Shown here piece by piece: positions 13,623 through 57,281 of a DNA stretch of 64,000 bases. A program made the translations under genes and the position numbers. How positions within the stretch are numbered: position 1 is the first letter of the stretch; each line of letters begins with the position of its first letter. A model generated the notes under the pieces. The model had not been told where the DNA came from. It was given only the letters and a program-made list of their open reading frames with translations, and did not search any database. Source of the stretch: Helicobacter cetorum (GTDB taxonomy: Bacteria > Campylobacterota > Campylobacteria > Campylobacterales > UBA6016); the NCBI GenBank assembly GCA_022729705.1, contig DZAX01000007.1:1868-65867 (forward strand). Direction: 5' to 3'.

Positions 13623-14566
13623 AAAAACTAATCATTGCAACACGTGCGTCAAAACTGGCTCTTTGGCAGTCAAACCACATAAAAGCCATGCTTGAAGAAG
13701 CTCATCCGGGGCTTGTCGTGGAGCTAAAACCAATCAAAACAACCGGCGATAAAATCCTAGACACCCCGCTAGCGCTTATAGGCGGTAAAGGGCTTTTTAC
13801 AAAAGAGCTTGAAGAGGATATGCTAAGCGGCGGCTCTCATCTAGCCGTGCATAGCCTAAAAGATGTTCCGACAAGATTTCCCGAGGGGCTTACGCTCGCC
13901 GCCGTTACAAAAAGAGAAGACCCAAGGGATTGCTTTTTGTCGTTTAAATACGCTTCGTTATCAGAGCTTCCGCAGGGCGCCGTTGTTGGCACTACAAGTC
14001 TTAGGCGAAGAATGCAGCTAAAAGCATATCGCCCCGATCTAGCCATCAAAGACTTAAGAGGAAACGTCGATACAAGGTTAAAAAAACTTGAAGACGGGAA
14101 GTTTGACGCTATTATATTAGCGACCGCCGGAATAAAGAGACTTGGGCTAATAGAGAGCGTGAAATATGCGACCCCTATAGATAGAGAGGTCATGACTCCA
14201 TCCATGGGGCAAGCGGCTATCGGTATAGAGAGTGTGGATGATGACGAGATAATCGAACTACTCTCTGTGCTTAACGACGAAGACGCAATGATAGAGACGG
14301 CTATCGAGCGCGATTTTGTAGACGCACTAGAGGGCGGATGTCAAGTTCCGATAGGCGTAAACGCTTCTCTCAACGGCGACAATGTCGAGGTAATGGCGGT
14401 TTTGGGTATGCCGGACGGCTCTTCAATAATGAAAAAAAGCGTTACCGCTTTGGCTGAAGATTATGAAGATATTGGCGAAGAGCTTGCAAATGAGTTTTTG
14501 GCGGAGGGCGCAAGAGAGCTCTTAAACGCTGCGTGCGCTATGGGCGAGGAGATATTGAGATATTGA
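13619..14566 (+). CDS. hemC: Hydroxymethylbilane synthase
   Basis: [36 protein letters not shown]. Confidence 0.97.
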
Positions 14567-14657
14567 TGTTACACGCCAATACGAGCAAAGCCCGTCTTGG
14601 CGGCAAGGACATAAATGTCCCTGCACCCCCTGAAGCTACCCGCCAGAGGCGGGAGAG
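14561..14657 (-). repeat. Family-A triple-hairpin repeat copy A1
   Basis: Reverse complement reads CTCTCCCGCC..GGCGGGTAGCTTCAGGGGGTGCAGGGACATTTATGTCCTTGCCG-stem-GTAACATCAATA. Confidence 0.9.
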
Positions 14658-14700
14658 AGCGGCAAGCCGCGAGAGCCCTCCGCTGAGGAGCTAATTTACG
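14657..14700 (+). repeat. Family-B repeat copy B2 (partial), back-to-back with A1
   Basis: GAGCGGCAAGCCGCGAGAGCCCTCCGCTGAGGAGCTAATTT. Confidence 0.8.
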
Positions 14701-14716
14701 GCAAGGATAAGCGCTA

Positions 14717-15325
14717 GTGAAACACCAACTTCTTGAGTTTTACTCTTCTAGGAAATTTTTTTTGGATACGATAGATTCTACGCTTGTTGATAAAAGTCTA
14801 GTGTATGATAGAGAGTATGGCTTTTGCGACTCTCCGATTATGTTTATCGGTGAAGCGCCGGGGGATAATGAAGTAAAAGAGGGGAGACCTTTTTGTGGGG
14901 CGGCGGGAAAAAATCTGCACAAGCTAATAGAGGCGGCGAAGCTTGATAGGGCAAAGATAGTTATCACAAATGCTTTTGCTTTTCGGACGTTTGACCACTC
15001 CCAAAAAGGAGTAAAAAACAGAACGCCAAACAGCGCCGAACTCCTACTTGGTGCGTCGATGCTACTTTTGGAGATAAAAATCATAAAACCTAGAGTTATC
15101 GTCATACTAGGAGGAAGTGCCGAAAAGGCTATGCTAAAACTTGGCGACCAAACGCTACGAGAAGCTTTCAAAAATCTCTCAAAGCATGAGATAAAAGAGG
15201 CGTTGCATGATGGAAAAACACTGCACATAGCCAAGACACACCACCCAAGCCCTCTTGTATTCAACAGGGCGGACAAACGAGCTGAGCTATACGAGTTTTT
15301 TGGTAGGTTGCATGAGCATAAGTGA
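14717..15325 (+). CDS. Uracil-DNA glycosylase, family-4-like
   Basis: MFIGEAPG, GRPFCGAAG, ITNA, NRTP, HHPS. Confidence 0.88.
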   Translation: MKHQLLEFYSSRKFFLDTIDSTLVDKSLVYDREYGFCDSPIMFIGEAPGDNEVKEGRPFCGAAGKNLHKLIEAAKLDRAKIVITNAFAFRTFDHSQKGVKNRTPNSAELLLGASMLLLEIKIIKPRVIVILGGSAEKAMLKLGDQTLREAFKNLSKHEIKEALHDGKTLHIAKTHHPSPLVFNRADKRAELYEFFGRLHEHK

Positions 15326-16052
15326 GAGCAAAAACGCGCAATTAGGGTTTTTGTACTCTATTCTTTCGCATCTGCTGATTGCGGCTTTGTTTTATTTTTT
15401 GACGATAAACAAAAAAGATTTACCGCCAAAAGAGGAGAAAAAGACGCTTGAGCTCTCTAAGTTTCAAACAAAACCAATAGAAAAAAGCACTCCGCAAAAA
15501 GAGTCCAAACCACAAGAAAAACCAAAGCAAAGCTCCAAAACAGCGCAACGTGAAAAACCGAAAAAAACACCACAAAAAGAGCCCGCCAAAGAAGAGAGCG
15601 CCCCAAAAACCGCAAAATCACAAGAGCAAAACAAAACATTCACCAAAAAACCCGCCGACAACTCCCTGCTATCAGAGCTAAACAACGAGTTCAAATCCGC
15701 TCCAAAAGAAGCTGGCTCCCCAATCCAAAAACTTTACGGCAAAGATTTTGAAAGAATGGGCAAAGAGGAGCAAAAATTTATCAAGGACAACCTAGGCACC
15801 ATCGGTAAAATAACTGAAAAATACCTCAGGTATCCGGACGTATCCGCTAGATTAAGACAACAAGGAGCAAGCGTAGTCGAGTTTTTCTTGTATCCAAACG
15901 GCGATATTGGCGATTTGCGACTTCTTGAGGGCTCAGGATACCGTCCGCTTGACAAAAACTCAATAGAGACGATAGAGATAGCCTACAAAGACTACCCTAG
16001 ACCTAGCGTAAAGACAAAGATTAGGATATATGTGCAGTATTCGATGTATTAG
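15312..16052 (+). CDS. tonB: TonB-family energy transducer
   Basis: N-terminal TM with SxxxH, Pro/Lys-rich linker, TonB_C (YP...QG...F...G...SG...LD); ATG 15312 preferred over TTG 15255. Confidence 0.8.
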   Translation: MSISESKNAQLGFLYSILSHLLIAALFYFLTINKKDLPPKEEKKTLELSKFQTKPIEKSTPQKESKPQEKPKQSSKTAQREKPKKTPQKEPAKEESAPKTAKSQEQNKTFTKKPADNSLLSELNNEFKSAPKEAGSPIQKLYGKDFERMGKEEQKFIKDNLGTIGKITEKYLRYPDVSARLRQQGASVVEFFLYPNGDIGDLRLLEGSGYRPLDKNSIETIEIAYKDYPRPSVKTKIRIYVQYSMY

Positions 16053-16059
16053 GGGAATT

Positions 16060-16183
16060 TTTTTGTAGTGTCTTTATAAAAGGGCGATGCAGTGATTTTC
16101 ACGATATATCTCGTCTTATCGGCCGCCAAAGACGATCAATCGACACCGCCCGTTAACTTTAGTCTAAGCAAAAATAGTTCCAA
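16060..16183 (-). pseudogene. Possible histidine-phosphatase (SixA/PGM-like) remnant
   Basis: MELFLLR start and a downstream ITASPF(IRTLQ)-like motif after frameshifts; heavily deleted. Confidence 0.3.
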
Positions 16184-16184
16184 G

Positions 16185-16372
16185 TTAGTTTTTTGGCTTA
16201 AAAAGCGATGCAATATAGTCTATTATCTCACCATTTCCAGTCAGCTCCGCCGCTTCCATACGGCTAACATCAATATACTTTTGCCGTTTGGCAAGGCGGC
16301 GTTTGCCTCTTCTTTTGAGGTTATCAGCGTGTTTATTGCGCCTATGTCTTCTTTTTTTGATAGCTTCAACTA
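16185..16372 (-). pseudogene. Ankyrin-repeat protein remnant
   Basis: EAIKK/EDIGAINTLITSKEEANAALPNGKSILMLAVWK, then another frame AAELTGNGEIIDYI. Confidence 0.5.
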
Positions 16373-16567
16373 CCTCTTACGACGGGGGAGCCGCCATTAG
16401 CGAAGCGGCTAATGCAAAAGCGAAAACGATTTTTTTCACACTTTGCCTTTGAAACTGTGTCAGCGCAACGCAGTAGGTCTAGATTATAAAATGTAAATTT
16501 TTTTCTATATATGAAGCTTTTAAAGATTAATTCTGTAAAGTAATACAAATTCATACAAAGGCACGTT

Positions 16568-18151
16568 ATGCTTAAAAATATGTCTATTAAAGCAAAACTT
16601 CTACTATTTCCCTGCTTACTTGCAGTGTTGCTTATTATTATATTCAGTTTATATCATAATAAAAACAAAGAGAAGGAGTACATAACCGTTACCAATGAAA
16701 TGATGAACCGCTTGATTAACGACTATTTGGATACCCGCATAAAATTATATCAGTTGTTCAGAATACATAACGATGAAAATATTAAAAAAGCGCGGGACAA
16801 CATAGATAAAAATAAAAAACAGATAGCCGATGCAAAGATGCGTCTAAAAACAACCGAAAATCTCAATAGGATGGAAGAAAACTCAAAACTTATAGTGGAG
16901 TATGAGGAGAAGTTTAATGACTATATGAAAATAGTTGACGAAGAGCAAAAAAGCGGCATAAAGAGCGATGACAACATAACACAACTTGTAAAAGGATGGG
17001 CGGCGATAGGCGCAAAAATACAAAAAAATACCGAAGATACTAGAGAAAGCTTATTCGTCTCCCTCGAAAAAGAAGAGAAGCATCTATATACGATGATGTC
17101 TATCGGCTATATAATTATTTTTACTCTTTTTACCATTATGTCATATATTGTTATAAGACAGATTATGCGCTCAATAAGCCTGCTTCGTAATTCAATAGGC
17201 GCGTTTGACTCTCATAAAGAGCTTGGTTTTAGAGTCGTATACGATGGAAAAGACGAGATAGGCGACGCCATAAAAAGCTTTAACGCACTACTCGCAACGC
17301 TGGAAGAAACCATCAAAGACGCAAAAAAGACTTCAAACGAAAACGCTTTTGTATCGCATGAGCTTAGCGCCACAAGTGCCCAAATAGGTAAAAACGCAGA
17401 ATCGGGGGCGCAGATAGTATTTGAAGCGATAGAAGAGATAAAAACTATAAAAAATTTTATAGAGGGTACAGCCTCTATGTCGTTACATACGAAGGATGAG
17501 ATAAAAGTAGCGGTAGACAGGCTAAACGGCGCAAAAAACTCTATAACTTCTCTAAAAAATGAAGTGGACAAAGCCAGCGAAGCAGAAGCGACTCTTGCGA
17601 GACGGCTTGAGAGCATGAGCGCCGAGGCGGCGCAGGTTAAGCAGATACTTTTGGTTATCTCCGATATAGCCGAGCAAACAAATCTTTTGGCTCTAAACGC
17701 CGCCATAGAAGCGGCTAGAGCCGGAGAGCACGGCAGAGGATTTGCGGTGGTGGCGGATGAAGTGCGAAAACTTGCAGAGAGAACACAAAAAAGCCTCACA
17801 GAAATCAACGCCACCATAAACACCATAGTCCAATCTATCATAGAGGCGGCAGAACAAATGGGTGTTAACGCCAACAATATTCAAAAATTAGTAGGAGTAT
17901 CTTATAGCGTTGAAAACGACATTATAGAGACCGGAACGACAATGCAAAGCTCTATGCACTCAGTAATAGAGAGCGCCGATAACTCCGTCAAGATAGCGAC
18001 CGACGCTGAGAAAATAGTAAAACTTGTCGGCAATATAAATCTTCTAACAAGTCAAAACGTAAAAAGCGTAGAGGAGATAGCCGCAACATCAGAACATCTA
18101 TACAAACTAACGGAAAATCTAAATGAAAAACTAAATATGTTTAAATCTTAA
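16568..18151 (+). CDS. Methyl-accepting chemotaxis protein
   Basis: Two TMs, [42 protein letters not shown]. Confidence 0.96.
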
Positions 18152-18152
18152 T

Positions 18153-18419
18153 GTGCCTAAACTGGACAAGGAAGTGATTGCCGAGATGCTTCAAAATAAT
18201 GGCAAGATTGATTTGAACATAAAACCAAAAGAACAAAAGATGCTTGAACTAACGATAATTCCTAGGAGCAGGGCAATAGAGCTTGAAAAAGCAGAAAAAG
18301 AGTTTTTGGTAAAACAAAAAGCCGCACTTTGGGAGCAGGAAAACGCCGAGGCAATAAACGAGCAAAACGCTAGAGTGGCTAGACGAGGGGTGTTTGCGGA
18401 TAAGGTGAGAAAAATTTAA
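18153..18419 (+). CDS. CcdA-antitoxin-like protein (orphan); start may be ATG 18240
   Basis: C-terminus WEQENAEAINEQNARVARRGVFADKVRKI resembles the CcdA WxxENxEAI...NxxxxxxGxF toxin-binding tail. Confidence 0.6.
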   Translation: MPKLDKEVIAEMLQNNGKIDLNIKPKEQKMLELTIIPRSRAIELEKAEKEFLVKQKAALWEQENAEAINEQNARVARRGVFADKVRKI

Positions 18420-18554
18420 ATGCATGACTGGAAATGTGATGCAGCTAGATAGCCTAGATACTGCTTGCAAAAAAGAGCTCCTTGCAACAGAGCCGTAATA
18501 AAGAAGTTTTATAGTTTCAACTATATTATTACGCAGGCAAAAAAGAGCAAAAAG

Positions 18555-20276: not shown

Positions 20277-20349
20277 AGGCGAAGCAAAATACGCTTTTGC
20301 ACAGGAAAGTCCAATCAGGACACAGATATTATAAAACAAGGAGTTACAG

Positions 20350-20541
20350 ATGGAGTGTTATCTATGCCAAAGCTCAGAAAATCTAAGTAGATATGTGGTT
20401 GACGGAGCTACTACGGTATTTGTATGCCAAGACTGTGAAGAGGAACTTCTTTTGGAAAACCATCTGGAGATTGAAGACAAGATTTATGATCAACCAATGC
20501 ACGACATACACGAGCGAGTCGCCGCATACGCATGCGCTTAA
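20350..20541 (+). CDS. Small CxxC...CxxC zinc-ribbon protein
   Basis: AGGAG RBS before ATG; CYLC and CQDC. Confidence 0.6.
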   Translation: MECYLCQSSENLSRYVVDGATTVFVCQDCEEELLLENHLEIEDKIYDQPMHDIHERVAAYACA

Positions 20542-20584
20542 GGGAGAGCTAGATTCCCGTCGTCAACAGGCGATGGACGGCTCT

Positions 20585-20616
20585 AGCTACCCGCTTACGC
20601 GGGAGAGCGTGGTAAG
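20585..20616 (-). repeat. Family-A first hairpin with a degenerate family-B start
   Basis: AGCTACCCGCTTACGCGGGAGAG followed by CGTGGTAAG. Confidence 0.6.
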
Positions 20617-20618
20617 TT

Positions 20619-21839: not shown

Positions 21840-21907
21840 AGTTGCTCCAGATTAAATTTGTTGGGGTTATTTTACTCAAAATATCATTATGGGACGCACC
21901 GGCTGAT

Positions 21908-21978
21908 ATTCTCGCATTTTCAAGCATTGCTCCAAAATGAGGCTTTCATACAGACGGCTCTTGCGGCTAATCACTCTA
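21908..21978 (-). repeat. Family-B repeat copy B3
   Basis: Reverse complement ...AGCCGCAAGAGCCGTCTG...CTCATTTTGGAGCAATGCTTGAAAATGCGAGAAT. Confidence 0.8.
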
Positions 21979-21986
21979 AAGCGAGG

Positions 21987-22235: not shown

Positions 22236-22277
22236 AAAAACTCCTTTGTGATTTATTTGATTTTACTAGCAAGCCGC

Positions 22278-22964: not shown

Positions 22965-22992
22965 ATAGATTTATCCTTGTGTAGCTCTCATA

Positions 22993-23076
22993 TAGCGGTA
23001 AGCCGCGAGAGCTGTCTGCCAAAGACCTCATTTTGGGGCAATGCTTCAAAATGTGAGAATTAATCAGATAGTTTAA
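22993..23076 (+). repeat. Family-B repeat copy B4
   Basis: AGCGGTAAGCCGCGAGAGC...CTCATTTTGGGGCAATGCTTCAAAATGTGAGAATTAATCAGATAGTTTAA. Confidence 0.85.
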
Positions 23077-23081
23077 TTGAA

Positions 23082-23272
23082 CCCTCAACTTATGGTAAGG
23101 GTTATCTTTAAAAAGCTCAGGATTTGAGTCAAACTTTCTAGGTAATGTATCATAGGGACTTTTAAACTTCAAAGCTTTCAATTTCTTTTGGTGATTGTAA
23201 TAAAGCAAGTAGCTCATCTATCGTCTCATAAGGATAAGTTTTGGTCGTAGCGTTTTTAATGGTCTCGTTAAA
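23082..23272 (-). mobile_element. IS481-family transposase C-terminal remnant
   Basis: FNETIKNATTKTYPYETID/MSYLLYYNHQKKLKALKFKSPYD...NPELFKDNPYHKLR; 23082-23218 identical to 50807-50943. Confidence 0.75.
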
Positions 23273-23320
23273 TAGACTTCTTGCAAAACTCTCTATGAAA
23301 TGAGTGCTTCAAAGAGCTAT
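23273..23320 (+). mobile_element. Putative IS5-family-like terminal segment
   Basis: TAGACTTCTTGCAAAACTCTCTATG...; inverted near-identical copy at 50960-51007 and partial at 57174; resembles IS1106-type GAGACCTTTGCAAAA ends. Confidence 0.5.
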
Positions 23321-23345
23321 AGGGTCAAAATCTATTGATTTTGGG

Positions 23346-23445
23346 AACTCATCATTTTGAAGCATTGCCCCAAAATGAGATCTTCAGCGTGAGGGCTCTT
23401 GCGGCTAGCCGCTCTAAGAATTTCAAGTTTAATCAGAGGGTTTAA
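23346..23445 (-). repeat. Family-B repeat copy B5
   Basis: Reverse complement TTAAACCCTCTGATTAA...GAGCGGCTAGCCGCAAGAGCC...CTCATTTTGGGGCAATGCTTCAAAATG. Confidence 0.85.
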
Positions 23446-23589
23446 TTAGCGCTTCGGCGAGACTCGATGCAGATAAATAAAAAGCTTGAGCGAGTGCCTT
23501 TTGGGCTTTGCTCTTGTTTATGCGTGACATCAGATAGGCTCTCAATATAAACGGCTTTTGGGTAGAATAAAAGCAAAAAAAGAGAAAAA

Positions 23590-24783: not shown

Positions 24784-24867
24784 GATTTGGTTTTTGAACG
24801 GTAAAAATACAGACTATTATGCTTAAGGTTTGACCTTATGCGCTAAAAAATGCGAAGATGCGCTATT

Positions 24868-24965
24868 TCTCCGGCGAAGCCGGTAGCTTCAGGGGGTTGC
24901 AAGGGACATTTATGTCCCTGCCGCCTATACGGGCTTTGCCCGTATAGGCGCGTAACATCAATATT
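24868..24965 (+). repeat. Family-A repeat copy A2 (reference copy)
   Basis: CCGGC-GAA-GCCGG / GGGACAT-TT-ATGTCCC / CGCCTATACGGGC-TTT-GCCCGTATAGGCG / GTAACATCAATAT. Confidence 0.92.
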
Positions 24966-25613: not shown

Positions 25614-25658
25614 TTGGTATACTCTCTCATAAATACACATTATCATCAGGATTACAAT

Positions 25659-26387: not shown

Positions 26388-26391
26388 TATT

Positions 26392-27696: not shown

Positions 27697-27772
27697 TGGT
27701 GGCTCGAGGCAGAATCGAACTGCCGACACGCAGATTTTCAGTCTACTGCTCTACCGACTGAGCTATCGAGCC
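27697..27772 (-). tRNA. tRNA-Phe(GAA)
   Basis: Reverse complement GGCTCGATAGCTCAG...CT-GAA-AA...GTTCGATTC...ACCA. Confidence 0.96.
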
Positions 27773-33236: not shown

Positions 33237-33255
33237 GCTGTGCATTTAAAATATA

Positions 33256-33353
33256 CTCTCCCGCTAAGCGGGTAGCTTTAGGGGGTTGTAGGGACATTTA
33301 TGTCCATGCCGTCAATACGAGCTTTGCTCGTATTGACGTTTAACATTGAATAT
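33256..33353 (+). repeat. Family-A repeat copy A3
   Basis: CCCGC-TAA-GCGGG / GGACAT-TT-ATGTCC / CGTCAATACGAGC-TTT-GCTCGTATTGACG / TAACATTGAATAT. Confidence 0.9.
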
Positions 33354-35771: not shown

Positions 35772-36710
35772 TTGGCTTTTTATTTAGATTTTGAAAAAAA
35801 AATACAGCAGCTGCAAGAAGAGATAGAGCTAAGTAGCGTCAAAAAAGATTTTCACGCCGTGGAAATTTTACAAAAAGAGCTAGATAAAGAGGTCGTTAAG
35901 ACATTTAAAAATCTAAATGAGTATCAAAAGCTTCAGCTTGCCCGTCACCAAGATAGACCGTATGCGCTTGATTATATCCATTTGATAATGAGCGACGCTT
36001 ACGAGATTCATGGGGATAGACACTTTAGGGATGACGCTTCTATTGTATGCTTTATCGGCAAAATAGGCGATGTGAATTGCGTCGTAATTGGCGAAGAAAA
36101 GGGGAGGGGTACTAAAAACAAAATACAAAGAAATTTTGGTATGCCTCATCCTGAGGGCTACAGAAAAGCTCTTCGTGCGGCAAAGCTCGCCGAGAAGTTT
36201 AACCTTCCTATTTTAATGCTTATAGACACCCCCGGAGCGTACCCGGGGCTTGGAGCCGAGGAGAGAGGGCAGTCTGAGGCGATAGCTAGAAATCTTCTTG
36301 AGCTCTCCCGGATAGAAGCCATAACCATATCTATTGTTATTGGCGAGGGCGGTAGCGGCGGAGCTTTGGCTATAGGCGTAGCCGATAGGCTTGCCATGAT
36401 GAGATATAGTGTTTTTAGTGTTATATCGCCGGAGGGGTGCGCCGCAATTTTGTGGAGTGATGCTTCAAAAGTAGAGACCGCGACAAACGCTCTAAAAATA
36501 ACGCCTGACGACTTAAAATTTTTGGGCTTAATAGATGATGTCATAGATGAGCCGGTTATAGGGGCGCATAGGGACAAAGAGGGCGCCGCAGAGGCTCTAA
36601 AGGGTTATTTTCTAAGCTCCATACAAGAGCTTAGCTCTTTTGATAATGAGACAAGAAACGCTGCTAGATACAAAAAACTAATGAGTTTGGGCAGGTTTGA
36701 GGAGCGATAG
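35772..36710 (+). CDS. accA: Acetyl-CoA carboxylase carboxyltransferase alpha
   Basis: [31 protein letters not shown]. Confidence 0.97.
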
Positions 36711-36725
36711 CTAGATTGAATTTGT

Positions 36726-36770
36726 CACCGATACAAGCAAAGCTTGTATCGGTGCATAATATCAATATTT
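36726..36770 (+). repeat. Family-A 3' half (third hairpin plus terminus)
   Basis: CACCGATACAAGC-AAA-GCTTGTATCGGTG followed by CATAATATCAATATTT, between convergent accA and petC. Confidence 0.7.
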
Positions 36771-37606
36771 TAGTGAATTTCTTTAAATTTTGAGACTTTC
36801 CATAGGTATGTTATTACCGTAAGAATTGCAAAATATCCTAAAATCCATATTGCTAACGAACTTCTTTCTTCTTTTGACGGATCGCCAACTTTCTCTAAGT
36901 GTTGAATCACTTTAGCTTGCGCTTGTTCTGTGAGCCCCACTCTTGGCATAGTCGTTCCGTGAAGAAGTTTTTGCGGATCATTAATAAAGCCGTGAAGATA
37001 ATGCTCGCCCTGGGATTTTATTACCTGCGATAAGTCCGGAGGCGTTGAGCCCATATACTCTTTAATTCTAGCGTCGCCGACAACTCTTTTTACGCCGTCA
37101 TATTTGATAGAGTGACATCTTGCACACGCCTCTTCTGTTATCTGTTTTGGCGTCAAATTTTTGTTTGCGATACTATCAAAGTATGCTACAAGATGCCCTG
37201 CGTCTTCTGCTGATATGCCGAGACTTGGCATTGCATATTTACCTGGTTTTGCTTTTACCGCATTTTCAGGATTTTGAATAAAGTTGGAGAGAAAATTGTG
37301 GTCATATATAGCCGCAATATTAGATAAATCAGGCGGAACTACGCCGTATGTATTTGCCGCATCCGCATCGCTCATAGCTAGCTTTACGCCCTCTTTATTG
37401 ATTGAGTGGCAAGAGATACATTGTGTGGCGGCAATCTCTTTGCCTTTTGCCGCATTACCGGAAGTTGGCTGTTTTGGCAAATCTTTAAACGCAAAGTCCG
37501 CCGGAGTTACTTCAGGATGCATAACATGGTGTGCGTAAGGTTCAACGCCCCAATACGTAAGCCCTACAAAAAATATTAAAACAGCTAGTATTTTTAGTTC
37601 TCTCAT
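36770..37606 (-). CDS. petC: Cytochrome bc complex dihaem cytochrome c subunit
   Basis: CISCH and CARCH, PPDLS twice, N- and C-terminal TMs. Confidence 0.92.
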   Translation of the reverse strand: MRELKILAVLIFFVGLTYWGVEPYAHHVMHPEVTPADFAFKDLPKQPTSGNAAKGKEIAATQCISCHSINKEGVKLAMSDADAANTYGVVPPDLSNIAAIYDHNFLSNFIQNPENAVKAKPGKYAMPSLGISAEDAGHLVAYFDSIANKNLTPKQITEEACARCHSIKYDGVKRVVGDARIKEYMGSTPPDLSQVIKSQGEHYLHGFINDPQKLLHGTTMPRVGLTEQAQAKVIQHLEKVGDPSKEERSSLAIWILGYFAILTVITYLWKVSKFKEIH

Positions 37607-41339: not shown

Positions 41340-41349
41340 GTGTGTCCAT

Positions 41350-41437
41350 ATTTGATGTTACGCAACGACGAACAAAGTCCGTCGTTGCTACGCTGAGCGC
41401 TTAGCTACTAAAGCTAGCCGCCGTGAGGCGGCAGAGT
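41350..41437 (-). repeat. Family-A repeat copy A8 with a substituted middle module
   Basis: Reverse complement CTCTGCCGCC..GGCGGCTAGCTTTAG...GCAACGACGGAC-TTT-GTTCGTCGTTGC-GTAACATCAAAT. Confidence 0.75.
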
Positions 41438-41535
41438 TAAGTCGTATCTGATTTATTTTTGTATAAAAAGATGAGCTTATTTTAGCAAATTTGCGCTAAT
41501 TTAGCTCTTTGCGCGCGGGCTTTGCCGCGTGCGGA

Positions 41536-42020: not shown

Positions 42021-42116
42021 CTCTCCCGCATTTATGCGGGTAGCTTCAGGGGGTGCAGGGACGCTCGCGTCCTTGCCATAAATAGGGGCTTTGCCGCTAT
42101 TTATGCGTAACATCAA
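42021..42116 (+). repeat. Family-A repeat copy A4
   Basis: CCCGCAT-TT-ATGCGGG / GGACGC-TC-GCGTCC / CATAAATAGGGGC-TTT-GCCGCTATTTATG / GTAACATCA. Confidence 0.9.
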
Positions 42117-42133: not shown

Positions 42134-42877
42134 ATGAGTCAAAAAGGTATTGGTGGGCATAGGCTGGCTGTGCTTATAGACGCGGAAAACGCGCAAGCTT
42201 CTCTCGCTCCCTATCTTCTCTCGGAGATAGCCAAATACGGCGTGGCTAGCGTGAAGAGGATATATGGAGACTGGACGAAACCGCAGCTTGGCGGTTGGAA
42301 AGAGACACTTCTGACTCACTCTATACAGCCGATGCAGCAGTTTAGCTACACAACCGGCAAAAACGCCACCGATAGTGCGCTTATCATAGACGCTATGGAT
42401 TTGCTTTATACGGCAAAATTTGACGGGTTTTGTATCGTCTCCTCCGATAGCGACTTTACCAGGCTTGCCGCTAGGATAAGAGAGTCGGGGCTTGTCGTAT
42501 ACGGCTTTGGAAAGCGTCAGACGCCAAAAGCTTTTGTGGCGGCGTGCGATAAGTTTATCTACACCGAAATCTTAAAAGAGGAGAAAGAGGGAGGCGCGGA
42601 GGTTGCGCTAAAGCCAACCAAAGAGAGTCCAAAAGACGAAAAACTACGCACACTCCTATCCGTCGCCGTAGAGGATTCGGGAGATGAAAACGGCTGGGCG
42701 AACCTAGGCGCCGTGGGAAGCGAAATCAACAAATACTCTCCTGATTTTGACCCTAGAAACTATGGATTTAAAAAACTAAGCGATTTGATAAAAGCCACCG
42801 GAATGTTTGAGTTTGATGAAAGAGACCACAAAAATTCACAAACAAAAACTGTATATGTAAGATTAAGAAGAAAGTAA
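42134..42877 (+). CDS. NYN-domain (LabA/DUF88) protein with C-terminal OST-HTH
   Basis: LIDAEN, IYGDW, GKNATD, SSDSDF, FDPRNYGFKKLSDL. Confidence 0.92.
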   Translation: MSQKGIGGHRLAVLIDAENAQASLAPYLLSEIAKYGVASVKRIYGDWTKPQLGGWKETLLTHSIQPMQQFSYTTGKNATDSALIIDAMDLLYTAKFDGFCIVSSDSDFTRLAARIRESGLVVYGFGKRQTPKAFVAACDKFIYTEILKEEKEGGAEVALKPTKESPKDEKLRTLLSVAVEDSGDENGWANLGAVGSEINKYSPDFDPRNYGFKKLSDLIKATGMFEFDERDHKNSQTKTVYVRLRRK

Positions 42878-42878: not shown

Positions 42879-42950
42879 CAAAGCCCGTGTTAGCGGCAAG
42901 GATAAATGTCCCTGCACCCCCTAAAAAGCTCCTGCGTATACGCAAGAGAG
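42879..42950 (-). repeat. Family-A repeat copy A5 (third hairpin truncated)
   Basis: CAAAGCCCGTGTTAGCGGCAAGGATAAATGTCCCTGCACCCCCTAAAAAGCTCCTGCGTATACGCAAGAGAG. Confidence 0.85.
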
Positions 42951-43015
42951 CGGCAAGCCGCGAGAGCCCTCTGCTGAAGAGCTAATTTCTGGCTTTGCCA
43001 GAAATTTGAGAATTA
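42947..43015 (+). repeat. Family-B repeat copy B6, back-to-back with A5
   Basis: GAGCGGCAAGCCGCGAGAGCCCTCTGCTGAAGAG-CT-AATTTCTGGC-TTT-GCCAGAAATT-TGAGAATT. Confidence 0.85.
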
Positions 43016-43548: not shown

Positions 43549-43615
43549 GCGGCAAGTAGCGAGAGCTCTTGCGCCGAAGAGTTCATTTTGGGCTTTGTTA
43601 AAAATGCGAGAATTC
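43548..43615 (+). repeat. Family-B repeat copy B7
   Basis: AGCGGCAAGTAGCGAGAGCTCTT...TCATTTTGGGCTTTGTTAAAAATGCGAGAATT; fills the gap between two convergent stops. Confidence 0.8.
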
Positions 43616-43616
43616 A

Positions 43617-50481: not shown

Positions 50482-50495
50482 TCTTTATAAAGAAA

Positions 50496-50744
50496 CTATT
50501 TTTTGCAAGGTTTTACTTCCAACTCTTTTGACAACGCCTCTATAGTTTGAACGCCAAATCCGTTTACCTCTTTTAACTCAGCCACACTCTCAAAACACTT
50601 TTTCTTTCTATATTCGATTATAGAGTCCGCTTTTTTTGAGCCTATTTTTTTTATCGTCATCAACTCCTCTTTTGAGGCACTGTTTATATCTACGCTCGCG
50701 AAAGATGATACGACAAAAAACGATAAAAACAGTGTCTTTTTCAT
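50496..50744 (-). CDS. comEA: ComEA-family HhH DNA-binding protein (second paralog)
   Basis: VDINSAS...IGSKKA..IIEYR..KCF...PCKK, similar to 21987-22235. Confidence 0.85.
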   Translation of the reverse strand: MKKTLFLSFFVVSSFASVDINSASKEELMTIKKIGSKKADSIIEYRKKKCFESVAELKEVNGFGVQTIEALSKELEVKPCKK

Positions 50745-50796
50745 ACTATGGCACCTTTTTTTTGAAGTTTAAATATTCTTTGATTTTACAACCTAA

Positions 50797-50957
50797 GTGT
50801 TTAGTCCCCTCAACTTATGGTAAGGGTTATCTTTAAAAAGCTCAGGATTTGAGTCAAACTTTCTAGGTAATGTATCATAGGGACTTTTAAACTTCAAAGC
50901 TTTCAATTTCTTTTGGTGATTGTAATAAAGCAAGTAGCTCATCAAGTGTTTTTTAGC
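50797..50957 (-). mobile_element. IS481-family right end with transposase C-terminus
   Basis: LKKHLMSYLLYYNHQKKLK...NPYHKLRGLNT*, terminal TGTTTAGTCCC; 137 bp identical to 23082-23218. Confidence 0.75.
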
Positions 50958-50959
50958 AA

Positions 50960-51007
50960 ATAGCTCTTTGAAGCGCTCATTTCATAGAGAGTTTTGCAAG
51001 AAGTCTA
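50960..51007 (-). mobile_element. Putative IS5-family-like terminal segment
   Basis: Inverted copy of 23273-23320 with one mismatch. Confidence 0.5.
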
Positions 51008-51032
51008 GCATATCAGCTTTTGCGGTAACGCT

Positions 51033-51041
51033 TGCTATAAT
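51033..51041 (+). promoter_or_regulatory. Extended -10 promoter upstream of A6 and the second wzx
   Basis: TGCTATAAT. Confidence 0.5.
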
Positions 51042-51098
51042 AACGGTATTAATAACCAAAAAAGGCGACTCATTGGATGATAACTAATTTTACGCACA

Positions 51099-51196
51099 CA
51101 CTCCCCCGCATTCATGCGGGAAACTTTAGGGGGTTGCAAGGGACATTTATGTCCCTGCCGTTAATATGGGCTTCGCCCATATTAACGTATAACATA
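51099..51196 (+). repeat. Family-A repeat copy A6
   Basis: CCCGCAT-TC-ATGCGGG / GGGACAT-TT-ATGTCCC / CGTTAATATGGGC-TTC-GCCCATATTAACG / TAACATA. Confidence 0.9.
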
Positions 51197-51198
51197 AA

Positions 51199-52440
51199 AT
51201 GATTAAAAGCATAAGAACGCAAAAAAAACTGCTCTCAAATATACTCTCTCTAATGGTCTTGCAGGGCGCAAACTATATTTTGCCGCTTATCACGCTACCT
51301 TATCTTGTCATAACTCTTGGCGTGGAAAAATTCGGTATTTTGGCGTTTGCCCAAGCTATAATCACATACCTAAACACCCTTGTGGATTACGGCTTTAATC
51401 TCTCAGCCACTAGAGCCATCGCGACCAACTCGCAAGACTCCAAAAACGTCTCTTCGGTGTTTATATCCGTCATACTCATCAAGATATTTTTACTGTGTGT
51501 TTCGTTTGTGATTTTGTCTGTTTTGATAAGCTCTTTTGATCGCATCGGCTCGGAGGCTATCGTGTACTATATGGCGTTTGGCGCACTTATTGGAAATCTG
51601 CTTTTTCCGGTTTGGTATTTTCAGGGAACTGAGGATATGAAGTATATTACTTATATCAATATCCTCTCAAAGCTTCTTTTTACCGTCGCAATTTTTGTTT
51701 TTGTGCATGAGCGGGCTGATTATGCCATGGTGCCTATGCTAAACTCGCTAGGTCTTATTATCGGCGGTGCTATTGCGCTTTTTATTGCGATTAGAAGGAT
51801 AGAGTTTCATATTCCGACGTTTGAGTATGTCAAATCAATTTTTAAAGAGAGCACGTCGCTTTTTGTCTCCAACGCCTCTATCTCGCTGTTTACCGCTAGT
51901 AATACGCTGATTTTGGGGCTTTTTGCGAGTAACGCCGTTGTTGGTATATACGCTGCGATAGAAAGGTTGATGACAGCCATAAAATACTTTTACGCTCCAT
52001 TGTATCAAGGTCTTTTTCCTTGGCTTGCCAAAAAAGATAGGGTTTCTATAGTTGGATTTGTATCTAGGTTTTTCCCGTATATCGGAGTGTTTGGTCTCTT
52101 GGTTACTATCCTAATAGCCGCTTTTGCACATCCTATTTTGACGCTAATTTACCAAAACAAAACCATTGGCGACCACTATGAGGTTCTTCAAATATTTTCT
52201 CTCGTATCGGTTTTTAATGCAACAAGTATGCTTTTTAATTATCTATTTTTGAATGTTATGAGAGAGTATAAGGAGCGAATGAGAATACTGCTTATTACGG
52301 GGTTTTTTAATGTGATTAGTGGGACGATATTAGCTTACAGTTTTGGGCTAATCGGCGTCGTCTGCTCAGTTACCGCCACGGAAGCCTTGCTTCTTGTGCT
52401 TAGTTATTTAAAATTTAAATCCATAAAAAGGAGCTTGTGA
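51199..52440 (+). CDS. wzx: Wzx-type flippase (second)
   Basis: NYILPLITLPYL, VDYGFNLSATR, WYFQG. Confidence 0.9.
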   Translation: MIKSIRTQKKLLSNILSLMVLQGANYILPLITLPYLVITLGVEKFGILAFAQAIITYLNTLVDYGFNLSATRAIATNSQDSKNVSSVFISVILIKIFLLCVSFVILSVLISSFDRIGSEAIVYYMAFGALIGNLLFPVWYFQGTEDMKYITYINILSKLLFTVAIFVFVHERADYAMVPMLNSLGLIIGGAIALFIAIRRIEFHIPTFEYVKSIFKESTSLFVSNASISLFTASNTLILGLFASNAVVGIYAAIERLMTAIKYFYAPLYQGLFPWLAKKDRVSIVGFVSRFFPYIGVFGLLVTILIAAFAHPILTLIYQNKTIGDHYEVLQIFSLVSVFNATSMLFNYLFLNVMREYKERMRILLITGFFNVISGTILAYSFGLIGVVCSVTATEALLLVLSYLKFKSIKRSL

Positions 52441-52623
52441 TAAAAAAATCTTAAAATCGGTGCTGTTTTATATCACTTTGTATAAAATTTTGAAGATAAG
52501 ATATGCCGCTGTGGCGACTATGATGACGATTATTCTCAGAAGATACGGTATGTATACATGCGAAAACCACCACAAACACACTCTAGCAAAATGCGGCAAA
52601 ATTTATTAGAAAAAGAGGGAAAA
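52437..52623 (+). pseudogene. Possible collapsed GT2 glycosyltransferase remnant
   Basis: FED...GDYDDDYSQKIR resembles the GT2 EDxDy..R motif; internal stops; fills the operon gap. Confidence 0.35.
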
Positions 52624-53484
52624 ATGCAGACGCTAATATGTCTTAACACTTGCAAAAGAGCAATCGCCGTCAAGGCTATCATCTGGAGTTATGTGGAGTT
52701 TGTAAAGTCCAGAGACGATTTTTTTCTAGTTGTCGGGCTTGACGGGGACGATAAAGATACTATTAGTTATTGCAAAGAGTTTGGCATTCCTCTTGTGTAT
52801 TCTGATGAAAACGAGGGTGTTGGATTGTCAAAAAACAGAGTACTATCTACTTTTGGCGATTTTGACTACTACTTTTTTATTGAAGACGACGTTGAGCTTT
52901 TAAATCCAAAAGTGTTTGATGCGCATATCGAAGTTTCCAAAAAATCCGGCATACACCACTTCTCTTCATTTGAGAGAAAACGGATAATAGACGAAGTCGC
53001 TAGGACGGAGGTTGGGGGCTATACGATTATCCACAGCATGTTTGGCGGTGCGCCGTTTAACTTTTTTACCAAAGAGGGGCTAAAGAGTGTGGGCGGCTGG
53101 CACGATATGTTTGCGACGTATAAGCGTTTTGGGCATACGGAGCACACTTATAGATTTGTAAACGCTGGGTTGTCAAAATATCCGTTTAGCGTGATTGACG
53201 AGCTTATCGAGGGGTATCTTGGCTGGAATGACCCTATAAGCGTCACAAAAATCAAAGTTCAAACGACGGTAAATAGGGTGTTTCAAGGGGAGAGCGACTT
53301 GATGGATGAGAAGCTTTCTTATTATCCGGTAAAAACTTTATCACCGTTTCATCTGACAAAAAATCTGGATAAGTCGGGGTTTAAAAAAGATAGTTTTGCA
53401 TTTATCCATAGATGGAGATTTAAGCTTCAAATGTGTGGCTTAAACACTCTTAGACAACTAAAAAGGGCGATTGTTGCCCGCTAA
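52624..53484 (+). CDS. GT-A fold (GT2-like) glycosyltransferase
   Basis: NEGVGLSKN, FFIEDD, VGGW, HTEHTYR; GAGGG RBS before ATG 52624. Confidence 0.75.
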   Translation: MQTLICLNTCKRAIAVKAIIWSYVEFVKSRDDFFLVVGLDGDDKDTISYCKEFGIPLVYSDENEGVGLSKNRVLSTFGDFDYYFFIEDDVELLNPKVFDAHIEVSKKSGIHHFSSFERKRIIDEVARTEVGGYTIIHSMFGGAPFNFFTKEGLKSVGGWHDMFATYKRFGHTEHTYRFVNAGLSKYPFSVIDELIEGYLGWNDPISVTKIKVQTTVNRVFQGESDLMDEKLSYYPVKTLSPFHLTKNLDKSGFKKDSFAFIHRWRFKLQMCGLNTLRQLKRAIVAR

Positions 53485-54640
53485 ATGGACGGTCTTTTTG
53501 TTGGCGTTAGCTGTTTTAACGCCAATGTATGGGAGTCTATTTGGACATTTCCATGCAAACGTTGCGCTATATGGCGTGTACTTTTCCGGTCTTACCTTTT
53601 TTCTATTTGCCAACTTCAAGCAGATGCTTTTTAGCAAACTAGACGCACTTGTGCTACTTTTTAACCTTTTTTTTATCGCCTCGCTTGCATACACCGTTAA
53701 CCAAGATTTTAAAACGGAGATGATACTATTTGCGATACTCCCGCTCTTTTATTTCAATGGTAAACTGCTTATTTATACAAACTCGCACACGCTTTTTTTT
53801 AGATTTATTGTGTTAATTATTTTTGCCGTAAACGTATATGTGTTTTTAAAATTAAGCGAAAACGGCTTTAAATATCACACATACTATCGCTATTCAAGTT
53901 CTTGGCTGCTTCTTGATTATTTGACGTTGGCACTCTTTGATTTGCTTGCGGCTATCATACTTTATGCGACCAATGTTATAGCAAACAAATATATTAAAAG
54001 CGGAATAATATTGCTTTTTTTGTTTATGATACTAATATCCGGCGCTCGTTATTCGATTCTTTTTTTGGGTCTATCTCTATTTATCTTTTTTATGTTGCTT
54101 CCCGCCGCCAAAAAGCTCTCATCGGTTGTGGTTGGCGGCTCTGCGATAACTCTGATTTTGCTTGGAAGCTCAAAAATACAAGATTTGTTTGCCTATACTA
54201 TCTTTCGTATGAGCAACATCTCAAGTGGGCATGACGCTTCGCTGGACGGGCGTGAAAACGTGCTAAATCTATCCTTGGCACTTATAGACAAAAATCCAAT
54301 CTTTGGATATGGTCTCAATAGCTCAGAGGCGCTTTTGTATCCGATACCTTTTCCGCACAATATGCTAATAGAGGCGTTTTTGGAGACGGGACTTTTGAAT
54401 ACTGTGATATTAGCCACGATTGTCGGCTCTGTGCTTATCATGGGGTTAAGGCTCTTTTGGCGAAACAAAAACTACTTTAGCGGGATTTTTATTATCGACC
54501 TCTATCTTATTATGTCGCATCTAAAGTCGTTTTCGATTGCCGAGGGGAAGATGCTGTTTTTCTTTTTTGGTATCACAATGGGTTTTTATAGCGTCTATTT
54601 TAAAAAACTTCACTATCAAGGCGAGGAGCCTCAAAAATGA
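53471..54640 (+). CDS. O-antigen polymerase/ligase (Wzy_C family)
   Basis: Many TMs, SGAR, NPIFGYG, PHN..IE...ETG. Confidence 0.85.
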   Translation: MLPAKWTVFLLALAVLTPMYGSLFGHFHANVALYGVYFSGLTFFLFANFKQMLFSKLDALVLLFNLFFIASLAYTVNQDFKTEMILFAILPLFYFNGKLLIYTNSHTLFFRFIVLIIFAVNVYVFLKLSENGFKYHTYYRYSSSWLLLDYLTLALFDLLAAIILYATNVIANKYIKSGIILLFLFMILISGARYSILFLGLSLFIFFMLLPAAKKLSSVVVGGSAITLILLGSSKIQDLFAYTIFRMSNISSGHDASLDGRENVLNLSLALIDKNPIFGYGLNSSEALLYPIPFPHNMLIEAFLETGLLNTVILATIVGSVLIMGLRLFWRNKNYFSGIFIIDLYLIMSHLKSFSIAEGKMLFFFFGITMGFYSVYFKKLHYQGEEPQK

Positions 54641-55458
54641 AACTTACAATCCTAGTCGCCACGATGAACGAAAACTTAGCCTCTTTAAAAGAGAAGCTTT
54701 TGAGGCTTCCTGCACATATTGACGTTGTGATTTGCCATCAGATAACAAAAGAGCAAGACGACTTTGAGGGTGCTAAAAACGAAATTGAGGCGATACGAGA
54801 GAATATAAAAGTGGTTCAAAAGCGTGAAAGAGGATTGTCAAAAAGCAGAAACGTCGCGCTATCTGCGGTAAAAAGCGGAGTATGTCTTATCACGGACGAT
54901 GATGTGGAGTTTGACGAACATCTTTATGAGCAGATAAAAGAAGCATACGAGGCGTATCCCGATGCGGACGTAATCACGTTTCAAGCAAAAACGCCGGAGG
55001 GGGAGTTTTTCAAGCCGTACAAAAACGAATCGTTTGTTCATGCGATGAAGAGCGCCGCTAAAGTCTCGTCGATTGAGATTAGCTTTAAGGCGGAGTCTAT
55101 CGGCAAAAGCGGTGTTTTTTTTGATGAGAGATTTGGGCTTGGCTCTTTGTATGCGACAGGGGAGGAGTATATATTTTTGGCTGATGCACTTAAAAAAGGG
55201 CTTACCCTGCGCTACTACCCAAAAACTATAGCACTCCACCCAAAAGAGAGTTCAGGCTCTGTGTTTGATGAAAAAATGTTTATAGCCAAAGGCGCGATGT
55301 TTGCCAGAGTTTTTGGCGCAAAATCTTACGCGGTCTCTTTGCTATTTGCGCTAAAAAAATATCCCAAATACAAACATAATCTAGGTTTGATAAGCGCATT
55401 TTTGCGTATGAGAGAGGGCGTGATGGCAATTATGGTTAGCGCCAAAAGCCGCTCTTAA
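54637..55458 (+). CDS. GT2 glycosyltransferase
   Basis: LVATMN, RGLSKSRN, TDDD, FDERFGLG..GEE. Confidence 0.88.
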   Translation: MKLTILVATMNENLASLKEKLLRLPAHIDVVICHQITKEQDDFEGAKNEIEAIRENIKVVQKRERGLSKSRNVALSAVKSGVCLITDDDVEFDEHLYEQIKEAYEAYPDADVITFQAKTPEGEFFKPYKNESFVHAMKSAAKVSSIEISFKAESIGKSGVFFDERFGLGSLYATGEEYIFLADALKKGLTLRYYPKTIALHPKESSGSVFDEKMFIAKGAMFARVFGAKSYAVSLLFALKKYPKYKHNLGLISAFLRMREGVMAIMVSAKSRS

Positions 55459-55541
55459 TATCGCCGTTAGAGAGTTTAGTTTATAATCCTTCTCTTTTTT
55501 ATTTTACAAAAATATACCTTCTTATTTGAGGCAAACGATAT

Positions 55542-55697
55542 ATGTTTAAAAAGTTTAGCTCCGTGTTTTATGTTGCTATTGTAGCTGCGCTGTTTTTGGC
55601 GGGATGCGGCTACAAAGGCGCCCCGGTCTACAAAGAAAATAACAAAACGATAGACTACAACGTAACCCAAAGCTCTGATAGTTCGAGCCGGATGTGA
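55542..55697 (+). CDS. Small lipoprotein, LptM/YifL-like (51 aa; not in ORF track)
   Basis: MFKKFSSVFYVAIVAALFLAG-CGYKGAPVY; lipobox LAGC; TGA overlaps the nadB GTG. Confidence 0.7.
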   Translation: MFKKFSSVFYVAIVAALFLAGCGYKGAPVYKENNKTIDYNVTQSSDSSSRM

Positions 55698-57133
55698 TTG
55701 ACGTTCTTATTATTGGAGCCGGCGTAGCCGGACTCTATACGGCTATTAATCTTCCAAAAAACCTAAAAGTTTTAGTTTTGTCAAAAAGCGAACCATCCGC
55801 CTCAAACACCTACTTAGCGCAAGGCGGCGTGGCTGTCAGTAAAAGCGAGACGGACGTCGCTTTGCATATAGAAGACACAATAAAAGCCGGCGCCGGACTT
55901 TGCGACAAAGAAGCGGTAGAAATCTTATGCAAAAACAGCATGAAAGAGATTAAAAACCTGATAAATATGGGTATGCGCTTTGACGAAAACGACAGAGGCG
56001 AACTGATGCTTACAAAAGAGGCGGCGCACTCCACTCCTAGGATACTGCACGCCGATGGGGACGCTACAGGCAGGGCTTTGTCTGAATTTTTGTATGAAAA
56101 ATCTCCTTGTGAGATAAGAGACCATACCGTGGTTGTGGATTTGCTTATTGATGAGGGCGTATGCTATGGTGTGACCGTGCTTACAAAAGATGAAAAATTA
56201 GAAAATATCTACGCAAAAAAGGTGATTATAGCAAGCGGCGGAGTCGGCTCCTTGTACAAATACAGCACAAACGACACCTCAATATCAGCAGACCTACACG
56301 GCGTAATAGTCGAAAAAGGCGGAGTTTTGCAAGATATGGAGATGATGCAGTTTCACCCTACCGTCTACCACGACCCGCGTTATGCTAGAAAAGTGCTTTT
56401 GACCGAGGCGTTAAGAGGCGAGGGTGCGTATGTGGTGGATGATGAGGGTAGGCGGTTTTTGTTTGATTATGACGAGAGGGGCGAGCTTGCTCCTAGGGAC
56501 ATACTATCAAGAGCGGTCGCTGACTATATAAAAAAAAGCTCCAAAAAAGCGTATCTCTCGTTTGATGTCTTCGATAAAGAGTTTTTTGTGCATAGATTTC
56601 CAAATATCTACTCAAACATGAAGAGCCTAGGTTTTGACCTACCGCATGACAATGTGCCGATATATCCGGCTTTTCACTACTCTATCGGCGGCATCAAGTG
56701 CTCTCTTGACACAAGAGCTCATGGTATCGGTAATCTTTTTGTGGTAGGCGAAGCTGCGTCAAACAGAGTTCACGGCGCAAACCGACTAGCAAGCAACTCT
56801 TTATTAGAGGGGCTCGTATTTGGCAAAATAGCCGCCGAAAGAATAGCTTCCGAGAGTTTTGAAGACAAACAAAAAGAGTTTGAGCCGACAAAAGAGCTAC
56901 TCTTTAAAAGCGGCGATACGCTCATTAAAGACGAAATAAGAGAGCTAATGTGGAATGATGCGTCTATCGCAAGAAACGTAAAAGACCTAACGACGGCCGA
57001 TGAGCGACTAGAGGAGCTGATATTCTCAAAACCGGGTAGAATGGCTAGACTGAGGCTAAAAGTAGCGCAAAATATTGCTAGGGCGGCACTAAGTAGAAAA
57101 GAGTCTATGGGAGCGCATTGTATAGGCTTTTAA
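55694..57133 (+). CDS. nadB: L-aspartate oxidase
   Basis: GAGVAG, AQGGVA, QFHPT, TEALRGEG, ELAPRD, VHGANRLASNSLLE. Confidence 0.94.
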   Translation: MIDVLIIGAGVAGLYTAINLPKNLKVLVLSKSEPSASNTYLAQGGVAVSKSETDVALHIEDTIKAGAGLCDKEAVEILCKNSMKEIKNLINMGMRFDENDRGELMLTKEAAHSTPRILHADGDATGRALSEFLYEKSPCEIRDHTVVVDLLIDEGVCYGVTVLTKDEKLENIYAKKVIIASGGVGSLYKYSTNDTSISADLHGVIVEKGGVLQDMEMMQFHPTVYHDPRYARKVLLTEALRGEGAYVVDDEGRRFLFDYDERGELAPRDILSRAVADYIKKSSKKAYLSFDVFDKEFFVHRFPNIYSNMKSLGFDLPHDNVPIYPAFHYSIGGIKCSLDTRAHGIGNLFVVGEAASNRVHGANRLASNSLLEGLVFGKIAAERIASESFEDKQKEFEPTKELLFKSGDTLIKDEIRELMWNDASIARNVKDLTTADERLEELIFSKPGRMARLRLKVAQNIARAALSRKESMGAHCIGF

Positions 57134-57173
57134 AGCTGATATTTTAAAAAGTTATTTGGAAATTTGGGGGCAT

Positions 57174-57227
57174 TGGACTTCTTGCAAAACCCTCTATTAT
57201 ACCTGAAGAATGGGGGGGGCTAAACGC
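57174..57227. mobile_element. IS5-like end fused to an IS481-like left end
   Basis: GACTTCTTGCAAAACCCTCTAT followed by ACCTGAAGAATGGGGGGGGCTAAACG (compare 5489-5512). Confidence 0.5.
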
Positions 57228-57240
57228 CTAAGCAACTCTC

Positions 57241-57281
57241 CTTTGCAACCCCCCAAAAGTTACCCGCGCGCACGGGAGTGT
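57241..57281 (-). repeat. Family-A repeat copy A7 (5' half)
   Basis: Reverse complement ACACTCCCGTGCGCGCGGGTAACTTTTGGGGGGTTGCAAAG. Confidence 0.7.

Follow-up and report, generated by a model that had tools for sequence, protein, structure and literature searches.

Three described kinds of short bacterial repeat come closest to the element examined here. The ERIC/IRU elements of Enterobacteriaceae and Vibrionaceae are MITEs (miniature transposable elements with inverted repeats) of ~127 bp that lie between genes and vary greatly in copy number between species; ERIC is also unusually conserved in sequence between genera. The Correia elements (CREE/NEMIS) of Neisseria are short, abundant, and non-coding, with terminal inverted repeats that themselves form a hairpin and with a target duplication, which is TA. 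We know of no transposase for them in the genomes that carry them. REP, BIME, and REPIN sequences are abundant intergenic hairpins that show compensatory stem changes, form mosaics with other repeat modules, and occur as inverted doublets. Here we describe family A, a dispersed hairpin element found in a 64,000-nt stretch (the window) of the genome assembly deposited as Helicobacter cetorum (GCA_022729705.1; 2.19 Mb, 75 contigs, 40.6% G+C). The window is contig C64:1868-65867, and a window coordinate equals the contig C64 coordinate minus 1867. The passages on ERIC/IRU and Correia elements in a 2024 review of prokaryotic MITEs state that the former produce stable hairpins in transcripts and can alter the fate of the mRNA carrying them, and that transcripts of the latter are cleaved by RNase III (PMC10969869).

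Family A is a MITE: it has terminal inverted repeats, 7-bp duplications, a small size, no transposase gene, many dispersed copies, and a presence/absence pattern between genomes. It shares this nature with ERIC/IRU in another group of hosts, a likeness in kind. Its core consists of three separate hairpins with conserved linkers, whereas ERIC is one long imperfect palindrome, and its duplication of 7 bp at TTAnTAA-like sites is unlike that of ERIC/IRU. With the Correia elements it shares shortness, abundance, lack of coding capacity, terminal inverted repeats, and a target duplication, and differs in having its structure in an internal core with compensatory variation; co-transcription with neighbouring genes, as in the Correia elements, may be a further likeness. 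Abundant intergenic hairpins, compensatory changes, mosaics, and inverted doublets are likewise common to family A and REP/BIME/REPIN, but the RAYT link is absent from family A, and REPs have neither the terminal inverted repeats nor the duplications that family A has.

Read directly in the window, the core has the layout CTCT-hairpin 1-TAGCTTYAGGGGG(T)TGCA-hairpin 2-GCC-hairpin 3-GTAACATCAA. Complete copies carry 12-nt terminal inverted repeats (CTGAYSTTAYGC on the left, GCRTAACATCAG on the right) and are non-coding elements of 115-145 bp. The original prediction, made from the letters of the window, had given a size of ~95 nt, which falls short for the whole element, with its left terminal repeat upstream of CTCT. 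Its proposal of a non-autonomous, multi-copy element was borne out. A profile built from five window copies found 168 matches genome-wide at E<1e-5, 125 of them near full length, and a covariance model built from 25 copies found at least 149 at E<=1e-3, a lower bound with 150 of 929 candidates scored. The repeat is thus not confined to the window, about 150 copies lying beyond the handful found there, and by crude gene calls the copies are essentially all intergenic.

The terminal repeats are clearest in a complete 2.25-Mb chromosome from another family (G013; 56% G+C), where 63-93 copies were found depending on the search used. A short palindrome, GACGTTACGC-AAAA-GCGTAACGTC, comes before the core there; its left arm is the reverse complement of the element tail, GCGTAACATCAG, so that the two form the 12-nt terminal inverted repeats. 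Among 81 copies, the left repeat was recognised in 60, the right in 62, and both in 49. We compared the 7 nt directly outside each end in a fixed register and found flanks identical at 6-7 positions in 23 of the 49 two-ended copies (11 perfect), against 1.7% for randomly re-paired flanks. The duplicated sites are AT-rich, with the consensus T-T-A-n-T-A-A. In the genome that holds the window, the right repeat was recognised in 107 of 151 copies, the left in 28, and both in 25, the left-repeat pattern being one that matches ~7% of random windows by chance. Flanks matched at 6-7 of 7 positions in 7 of the 25, compared with 1.5% in controls. Among loci from other genomes (L024-L160), perfect 7-bp duplications flank nine pairs of terminal repeats that are separated by 117-321 bp; these include Sulfurovum, Sulfuricurvum metagenome-assembled genomes (MAGs), and other Campylobacterales records. 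G013 also contains a second, unrelated, non-coding element of 269 bp with the same terminal repeats, extended to ~20 nt, around a G+C-rich, palindromic interior. All seven of its copies (at 334174, 456262, 1281100, 1556501, 1912471, 1983219, and 2053409) have perfect 7-bp duplications, which suggests that one transposase serves both family A and the 269-bp element and was recently active.

Family A was present in 14 of 41 related genomes searched with the covariance model: all eight of the same genus, and others spread patchily over four further GTDB families. Within one genus, 70 matches were found in one species and zero in another. A motif scan gave matches in Sulfuricurvum, Sulfurimonas (one complete genome among them), Sulfurovum, and other Campylobacterales records, and a search of a plasmid collection gave no match. 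Orthologous presence and absence in relatives was compared at one site, the gpmI-fabG junction, one of two regions that the original prediction had named. In each of the eight same-genus genomes only 2-3 nt part the gpmI stop codon from the fabG ATG that follows it, leaving the site free of the element, while ~130 nt, including the copy at 33256, separate the two genes here. A metagenome contig that is 99.4% identical over 3.2 kb also has no block 33240-33348, with position 33239 joined to 33349 via ten other letters; it is not a clean empty site and was not used for defining the ends. These comparisons show that family A spreads between sulfur-oxidising Campylobacterota genomes and is gained and lost between close strains.

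The stems of the core are rewritten between copies and yet stay paired, as the original prediction had claimed. Across 25 copies and 25 pairs, standard pairs occupied 93.8% of cells, compared with 34.7-50.5% when partners were slid by 1-3 columns. Changes on both sides were found in 16 of the 25 pairs (72 cells), and 0 of 500 column shuffles reached the observed values. The pattern holds in a larger alignment of 86 distinct near-full copies, in which 51 versions of the hairpin 3 5' arm occur and an individual pair can take 3-5 pair types. RNAalifold agreed with the hairpins and added a closing helix, GCA/TGC, to hairpin 2, which itself switches to GTA/TAC; hairpin 2 is therefore present as predicted, in a version that had been drawn too short. 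The 86 copies comprise 1874 Watson-Crick cells, 135 G.T/T.G, 27 A.C/C.A, 25 other mismatches, and 3 gaps. In G013, for which the alignment is imperfect, G.T stood at 131 against 17 for A.C, and at 74 against 10 in hairpin 3 alone. Hairpin 1 is CCCGC/GCGGG here, TCGAAATC/GATTTCGA in G013, and different again, though still a hairpin, in G009 and G024. Unchanged across families are the unpaired AGCTTTAGGGGG..GCA and GCC, the tip of hairpin 3 (GGGCTTTGCYC), and the tail, the conserved linkers across bacterial families reading AGCTTYAGGGGG..GCA and GCC. The top strand folds more stably than the bottom strand in four of five window copies, and the folding of either strand is well above that of shuffled sequence (z -3.5 to -7.2). 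The core is conserved better than a plain MITE needs.

The window copies are given below, with core-layout copies read directly from the window sequence. All seven copies named by the original prediction are present. Its four fragments are there as weak profile matches, three of which (at 23503, 36723, and 57235) are recognisable by eye.

14563-14657, minus strand: core-layout copy; its 5' end adjoins a copy of repeat family B (14656-14724).
20582-20611, minus strand: possible fragment of the hairpin 1 region; weak profile match alone (E 1.6).
23503-23535, plus strand: fragment with the 3' arm of hairpin 3 and the tail GCGTGACATCAG; profile E 0.79, recognisable by eye.
24830-24961, plus strand: complete copy, 132 bp; left repeat TTGACCTTATGC, spacer, core-layout core at 24867-24961, right repeat GCGTAACATCAA.
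33256-33349, plus strand: core-layout copy with no recognisable left repeat, between gpmI (stop 33236) and fabG (start in the 33370 region).
36723-36771, plus strand: solo hairpin 3 (CACCGATACAAGC/GCTTGTATCGGTG) followed by the tail CATAATATCAA; profile E 0.56, recognisable by eye.
41348-41440, minus strand: variant copy that still has hairpin 1, the beginning of the linker, hairpin 3, and the right terminal repeat.
42021-42116, plus strand: core-layout copy with hairpin 2 GGGACGC/GCGTCC, ~18 nt upstream of an open reading frame (ORF) at 42134-42877.
42879-42945, minus strand: shortened copy that ends within hairpin 3 and so has no tail; its 5' end adjoins family B at 42947-43015.
51084-51198, plus strand: complete short copy, 115 bp; left repeat CTAATTTTACGC directly before the core-layout core (51101-51198), right end GTATAACATAAA.
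57235-57281, minus strand: fragment with hairpin 1 and linker only; profile E 0.26, recognisable by eye.

The two complete window copies differ at their flanks. The copy at 51084-51198 lies between ATGATAA (51077-51083) and ATGATTA (51199-51205), and the right flank includes the ATG of the ORF at 51199-52440, so that this one copy supplies a duplicated start codon. The copy at 24830-24961 has no recognisable 7-bp duplication, with one of seven positions matching. The variant at 41348-41440 has another short palindrome in place of hairpin 2, and the same variant occurs at two further sites in the genome. Two other strains, represented by contigs from runs X6 and X8, have 567 other letters in place of 59 nt around the solo hairpin 3 (window 36709-36769).

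Taken together, we consider it probable that family A is a MITE moved by an external transposase and that its core is under strand-specific selection. A transposase supplied from elsewhere would move the element into AT-rich sites near TTAnTAA, duplicating 7 bp. The target of selection would be the top strand in its folded form, most likely RNA made when the element is transcribed, and this core RNA may arise from a promoter of the element itself or from read-through transcripts. Strand-specific selection on the core is indicated by linkers that are conserved across families, by the excess of G.T over A.C, and by a core that outlasts the left end. Copies without the left terminal repeat, which are the majority in this genome, are probably no longer able to move. 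We looked for a promoter in the left part as a general feature and dropped the idea: words resembling a -10 box precede some copies in this genome, and G013 has none. We likewise dropped the idea that one-ended copies arose when the left palindrome was excised, with no enrichment of duplications next to CTCT.

Several results weigh against this joint explanation. By crude ORF calls, the orientation of family A relative to co-directional neighbours is near random (45 sense, 33 antisense), so a role in host read-through transcripts is not favoured; the same calls place 33 further copies between convergent genes and 12 between divergent genes. The column-shuffle control ignores the kinship of copies. 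In addition, 78 of the 135 G.T cells come from two positions, which were probably inherited from master copies, leaving few independent events in the asymmetry. A recognisable left repeat remains in just 28 of 151 copies, and no duplication is seen beside CTCT in the one-ended copies (2.9%, the controls giving 8.3%). Nor was any terminal-repeat pair found to enclose a transposase gene in this genome, the G013 chromosome, or the screened loci (L081-L160, L024-L160), a search that left aside plasmids and other genomes. Finally, a PF01609 transposase is absent from G013 and below threshold here.

Judging from the inverted repeats, the fixed-length duplication, and the symmetric target, the transposase would be of the DDE type. 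The terminal repeat starts CTGATG or CTGAC, like the outside ends of IS10 and IS50, a resemblance that serves as a lead only. The target consensus of IS10 and IS50 is symmetric, as in family A, but the duplication is 7 bp in family A and 9 in these members of the IS4 family. An IS4-type transposase was considered and set aside, the PF01609 hits in G002 and G005 having no such ends nearby. Where two terminal repeats lie 0.9-3 kb from each other, here or in the loci from other genomes, the genes between them are ordinary ones (a glycosyltransferase, NuoA, ribosomal protein S20). Two cases of a split copy with a gene inside it were followed up, one being a copy interrupted by a 1.1-kb element and the other an internal gap.

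In a more specific account, the transposon carries the core as cargo, a structured RNA that is functional and strand-specific and that purifying selection has kept across several Campylobacterales families. We put this forward as tentative, a possibility on the weaker side of even. The element could in this way encode a regulatory RNA of its own, much as IS10 does with its antisense RNA. Alternatively, the host could retain the core of a copy that has lost its mobility as a ready-made module for untranslated regions, which would explain why most copies here have no left end yet retain the core and linkers.

The serious rival is a neutral origin, in which family A is an ordinary MITE with a functionless core, and its pairing stems from a few palindromic master copies together with templated strand-switch repair or gene conversion. 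We regard this as unlikely, though by a modest measure. Terminal repeats and duplications are what a plain MITE would have; the commonest hairpin 3 arms are each found in 7-11 copies, as subfamilies predict; and the folding of both strands above shuffles, like the near-random gene orientation, suits a core without function. On the other hand, templated correction predicts perfect Watson-Crick pairing, yet G.T cells outnumber A.C cells by 135 to 27, and the second genome behaves likewise. The linkers are constant across GTDB families though hairpin 1 is wholly rewritten, and a core found in 151 copies, compared with a left repeat found in 28, is not predicted by neutral decay. The statement in the original prediction that passive decay of a mobile element would not give such covariation is therefore reasonable but not proven, since several master copies and templated palindrome repair are possible contributors.

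Mobility as folded single-stranded DNA was the first suggestion of the original prediction, which named REP/RAYT, IS200/IS605, and IS91 systems. Movement of a REP/REPIN-like or IS200/IS605-type element by a Y1 HUH transposase (RAYT or TnpA) would fit the strand-specific folding, the absence of the left inverted repeat from most copies here, and the apparent abundance of head-to-head inverted pairs 40-150 nt apart. Three Y1 (PF01797) genes are also present in the genome: an IS605-type tnpA, broken and accompanied by tnpB, a 247-residue Y1-HTH protein, and a RAYT-like gene, and hairpin 2 has the same stems (GGGAC/GGGGC) as the hairpins flanking the RAYT-like gene, a match of just 5 bp. We nonetheless consider this reading very improbable. 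HUH elements have no terminal inverted repeats and make no 7-bp target duplications, and IS200/IS605-type elements in particular have neither inverted repeats nor a duplication and insert 3' of a fixed 4-5-nt word. The 12-nt terminal inverted repeats and 7-bp duplications of family A speak against such mobility. No family A copy flanks any of the three Y1 genes, and the hairpins on either side of the RAYT-like gene are a REP-like kind of their own (GCGGGRCTNAAGYCCCAC), the five copies of which are all confined to that locus. Among 40 related genomes, close RAYT relatives occur in G021 and G040 alone, both of which are without family A, and 3 of 13 genomes with family A, as against 9 of 27 without it, have the Y1-HTH protein. 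Replication-strand bias was absent, with orientations of 48 to 45 in G013 and, in this genome, no association with local GC skew (50 to 50 among 100 copies in clear-skew regions). The duplications, the separate RAYT hairpins, the lack of co-occurrence, and the lack of strand bias together argue against HUH single-stranded-DNA mobility.

The RAYT-like gene (G000 C72:14325-15044, locus L003) sits between restriction-modification genes resembling type I HsdS and HsdR. In the IS605-type element (G000 C48:30880-32862, locus L001), tnpA is broken by a TGA codon and tnpB is intact, at 378 residues. This element lies ~20 nt from a family A copy, but its end hairpins are unrelated, and a link between the two was rejected.

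Free-standing structured small-RNA genes or cis-regulatory RNA motifs without any mobile DNA are the least credible account: covariation with G.U tolerance, conserved single-stranded linkers (a purine-rich AGGGGG and a pyrimidine-rich CUCUCC able to pair together), and the many copies 15-25 nt upstream of a ribosome-binding site would suit them, but terminal repeats, target duplications, gain and loss from strain to strain and species to species, a copy number of ~150 with genes read in either direction beside them, a patchy distribution across families, and the lack of an Rfam match at E<=1 would not. As the sole explanation this account is contradicted by the duplications, whereas an RNA role alongside mobility belongs to the account that we favour.

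Family A is a real, abundant, and apparently undescribed member of the MITE kind. In a scan of the window against Rfam, a check that the original prediction had proposed, tRNAs alone reached the gathering score, and seven copies from five genomes gave no hit on the element at E<=1, so that no known Rfam family is matched. Integron attC sites, dif-like sites, and TnpB guide-RNA scaffolds, words of which the tail resembles, do not fit the dispersal, the presence in both orientations, or the duplications. Full-text literature searches for repeats or MITEs in these taxa gave nothing relevant among the matches listed, in line with the original prediction, which did not recognise a described repeat of Campylobacterota. 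Campylobacter, Helicobacter, the sulfur-named genera, and "epsilon" are unmentioned in the searched passages of the 2024 prokaryotic MITE review (PMC10969869).

Of the 2.2-Mb genome, ~15-20 kb is family A, placed directly at the borders of genes, in hosts that are environmentally important sulfur oxidisers and for which no described repeat families are known. It will break assemblies and mislead annotators of intergenic regions and small ORFs. Should the core act as RNA, nature would here offer a clean example of a structured regulatory module being spread by a transposon, and the ~150 within-genome replicates and the cross-family comparisons make such a role testable. If it does not, family A would still be useful as a marker, both to type strains and to date bursts of transposition in uncultured populations.

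Several longer arrangements of family A were observed. About ten copies measure 129-141 nt, e.g. G000 C70:18404-18537, and have a 35-nt extra hairpin within the conserved linker between hairpins 1 and 2; in the copy read (C70:18404-18537) it is CCCATCGCC-GGTT-GGCGATGGG, and it may be another small palindromic insert. At G000 C10:10915-12047, a 1.13-kb element with terminal inverted repeats of ~140 nt is inserted in the linker of a family A copy; it has two small ORFs of 80 and 156 codons, the second of which looks membrane-bound. Tandem arrays of two or three cores ~106 nt apart were seen at locus L108 (a Sulfuricurvum MAG; 6335-6692) and at G000 C16:15875-16149 and C41:7027-7294. The L108 cores sit within one terminal-repeat pair, the flanks of which agree at 6 of 7 positions.

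The window also holds a second repeat, family B, which consists of AGAGCGGCAAGCCGCGAGAGCC followed by a hairpin, CATTTTGGGC..GCCCAAAATG. Its copies are as follows.

5416-5484: family B.
14656-14724: family B.
21915-21979: family B, inverted.
22992-23060: family B.
23353-23417: family B, inverted.
42947-43015: family B.

At 14656, at 42947, and at several other sites in the genome, family B lies immediately next to the 5' end of a family A core. Inverted copies of family B bracket a 290-bp segment with a 90-codon ORF at 23060-23350. A 137-nt stretch occurs twice with 100% identity, at 23082-23218 and 50807-50943, and the copy at 23082 lies within a small minus-strand ORF between two inverted B repeats. 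Finally, a cluster of five tRNA genes was found on the plus strand at 4824-5325, and a sixth tRNA gene on the minus strand at 27700-27772.

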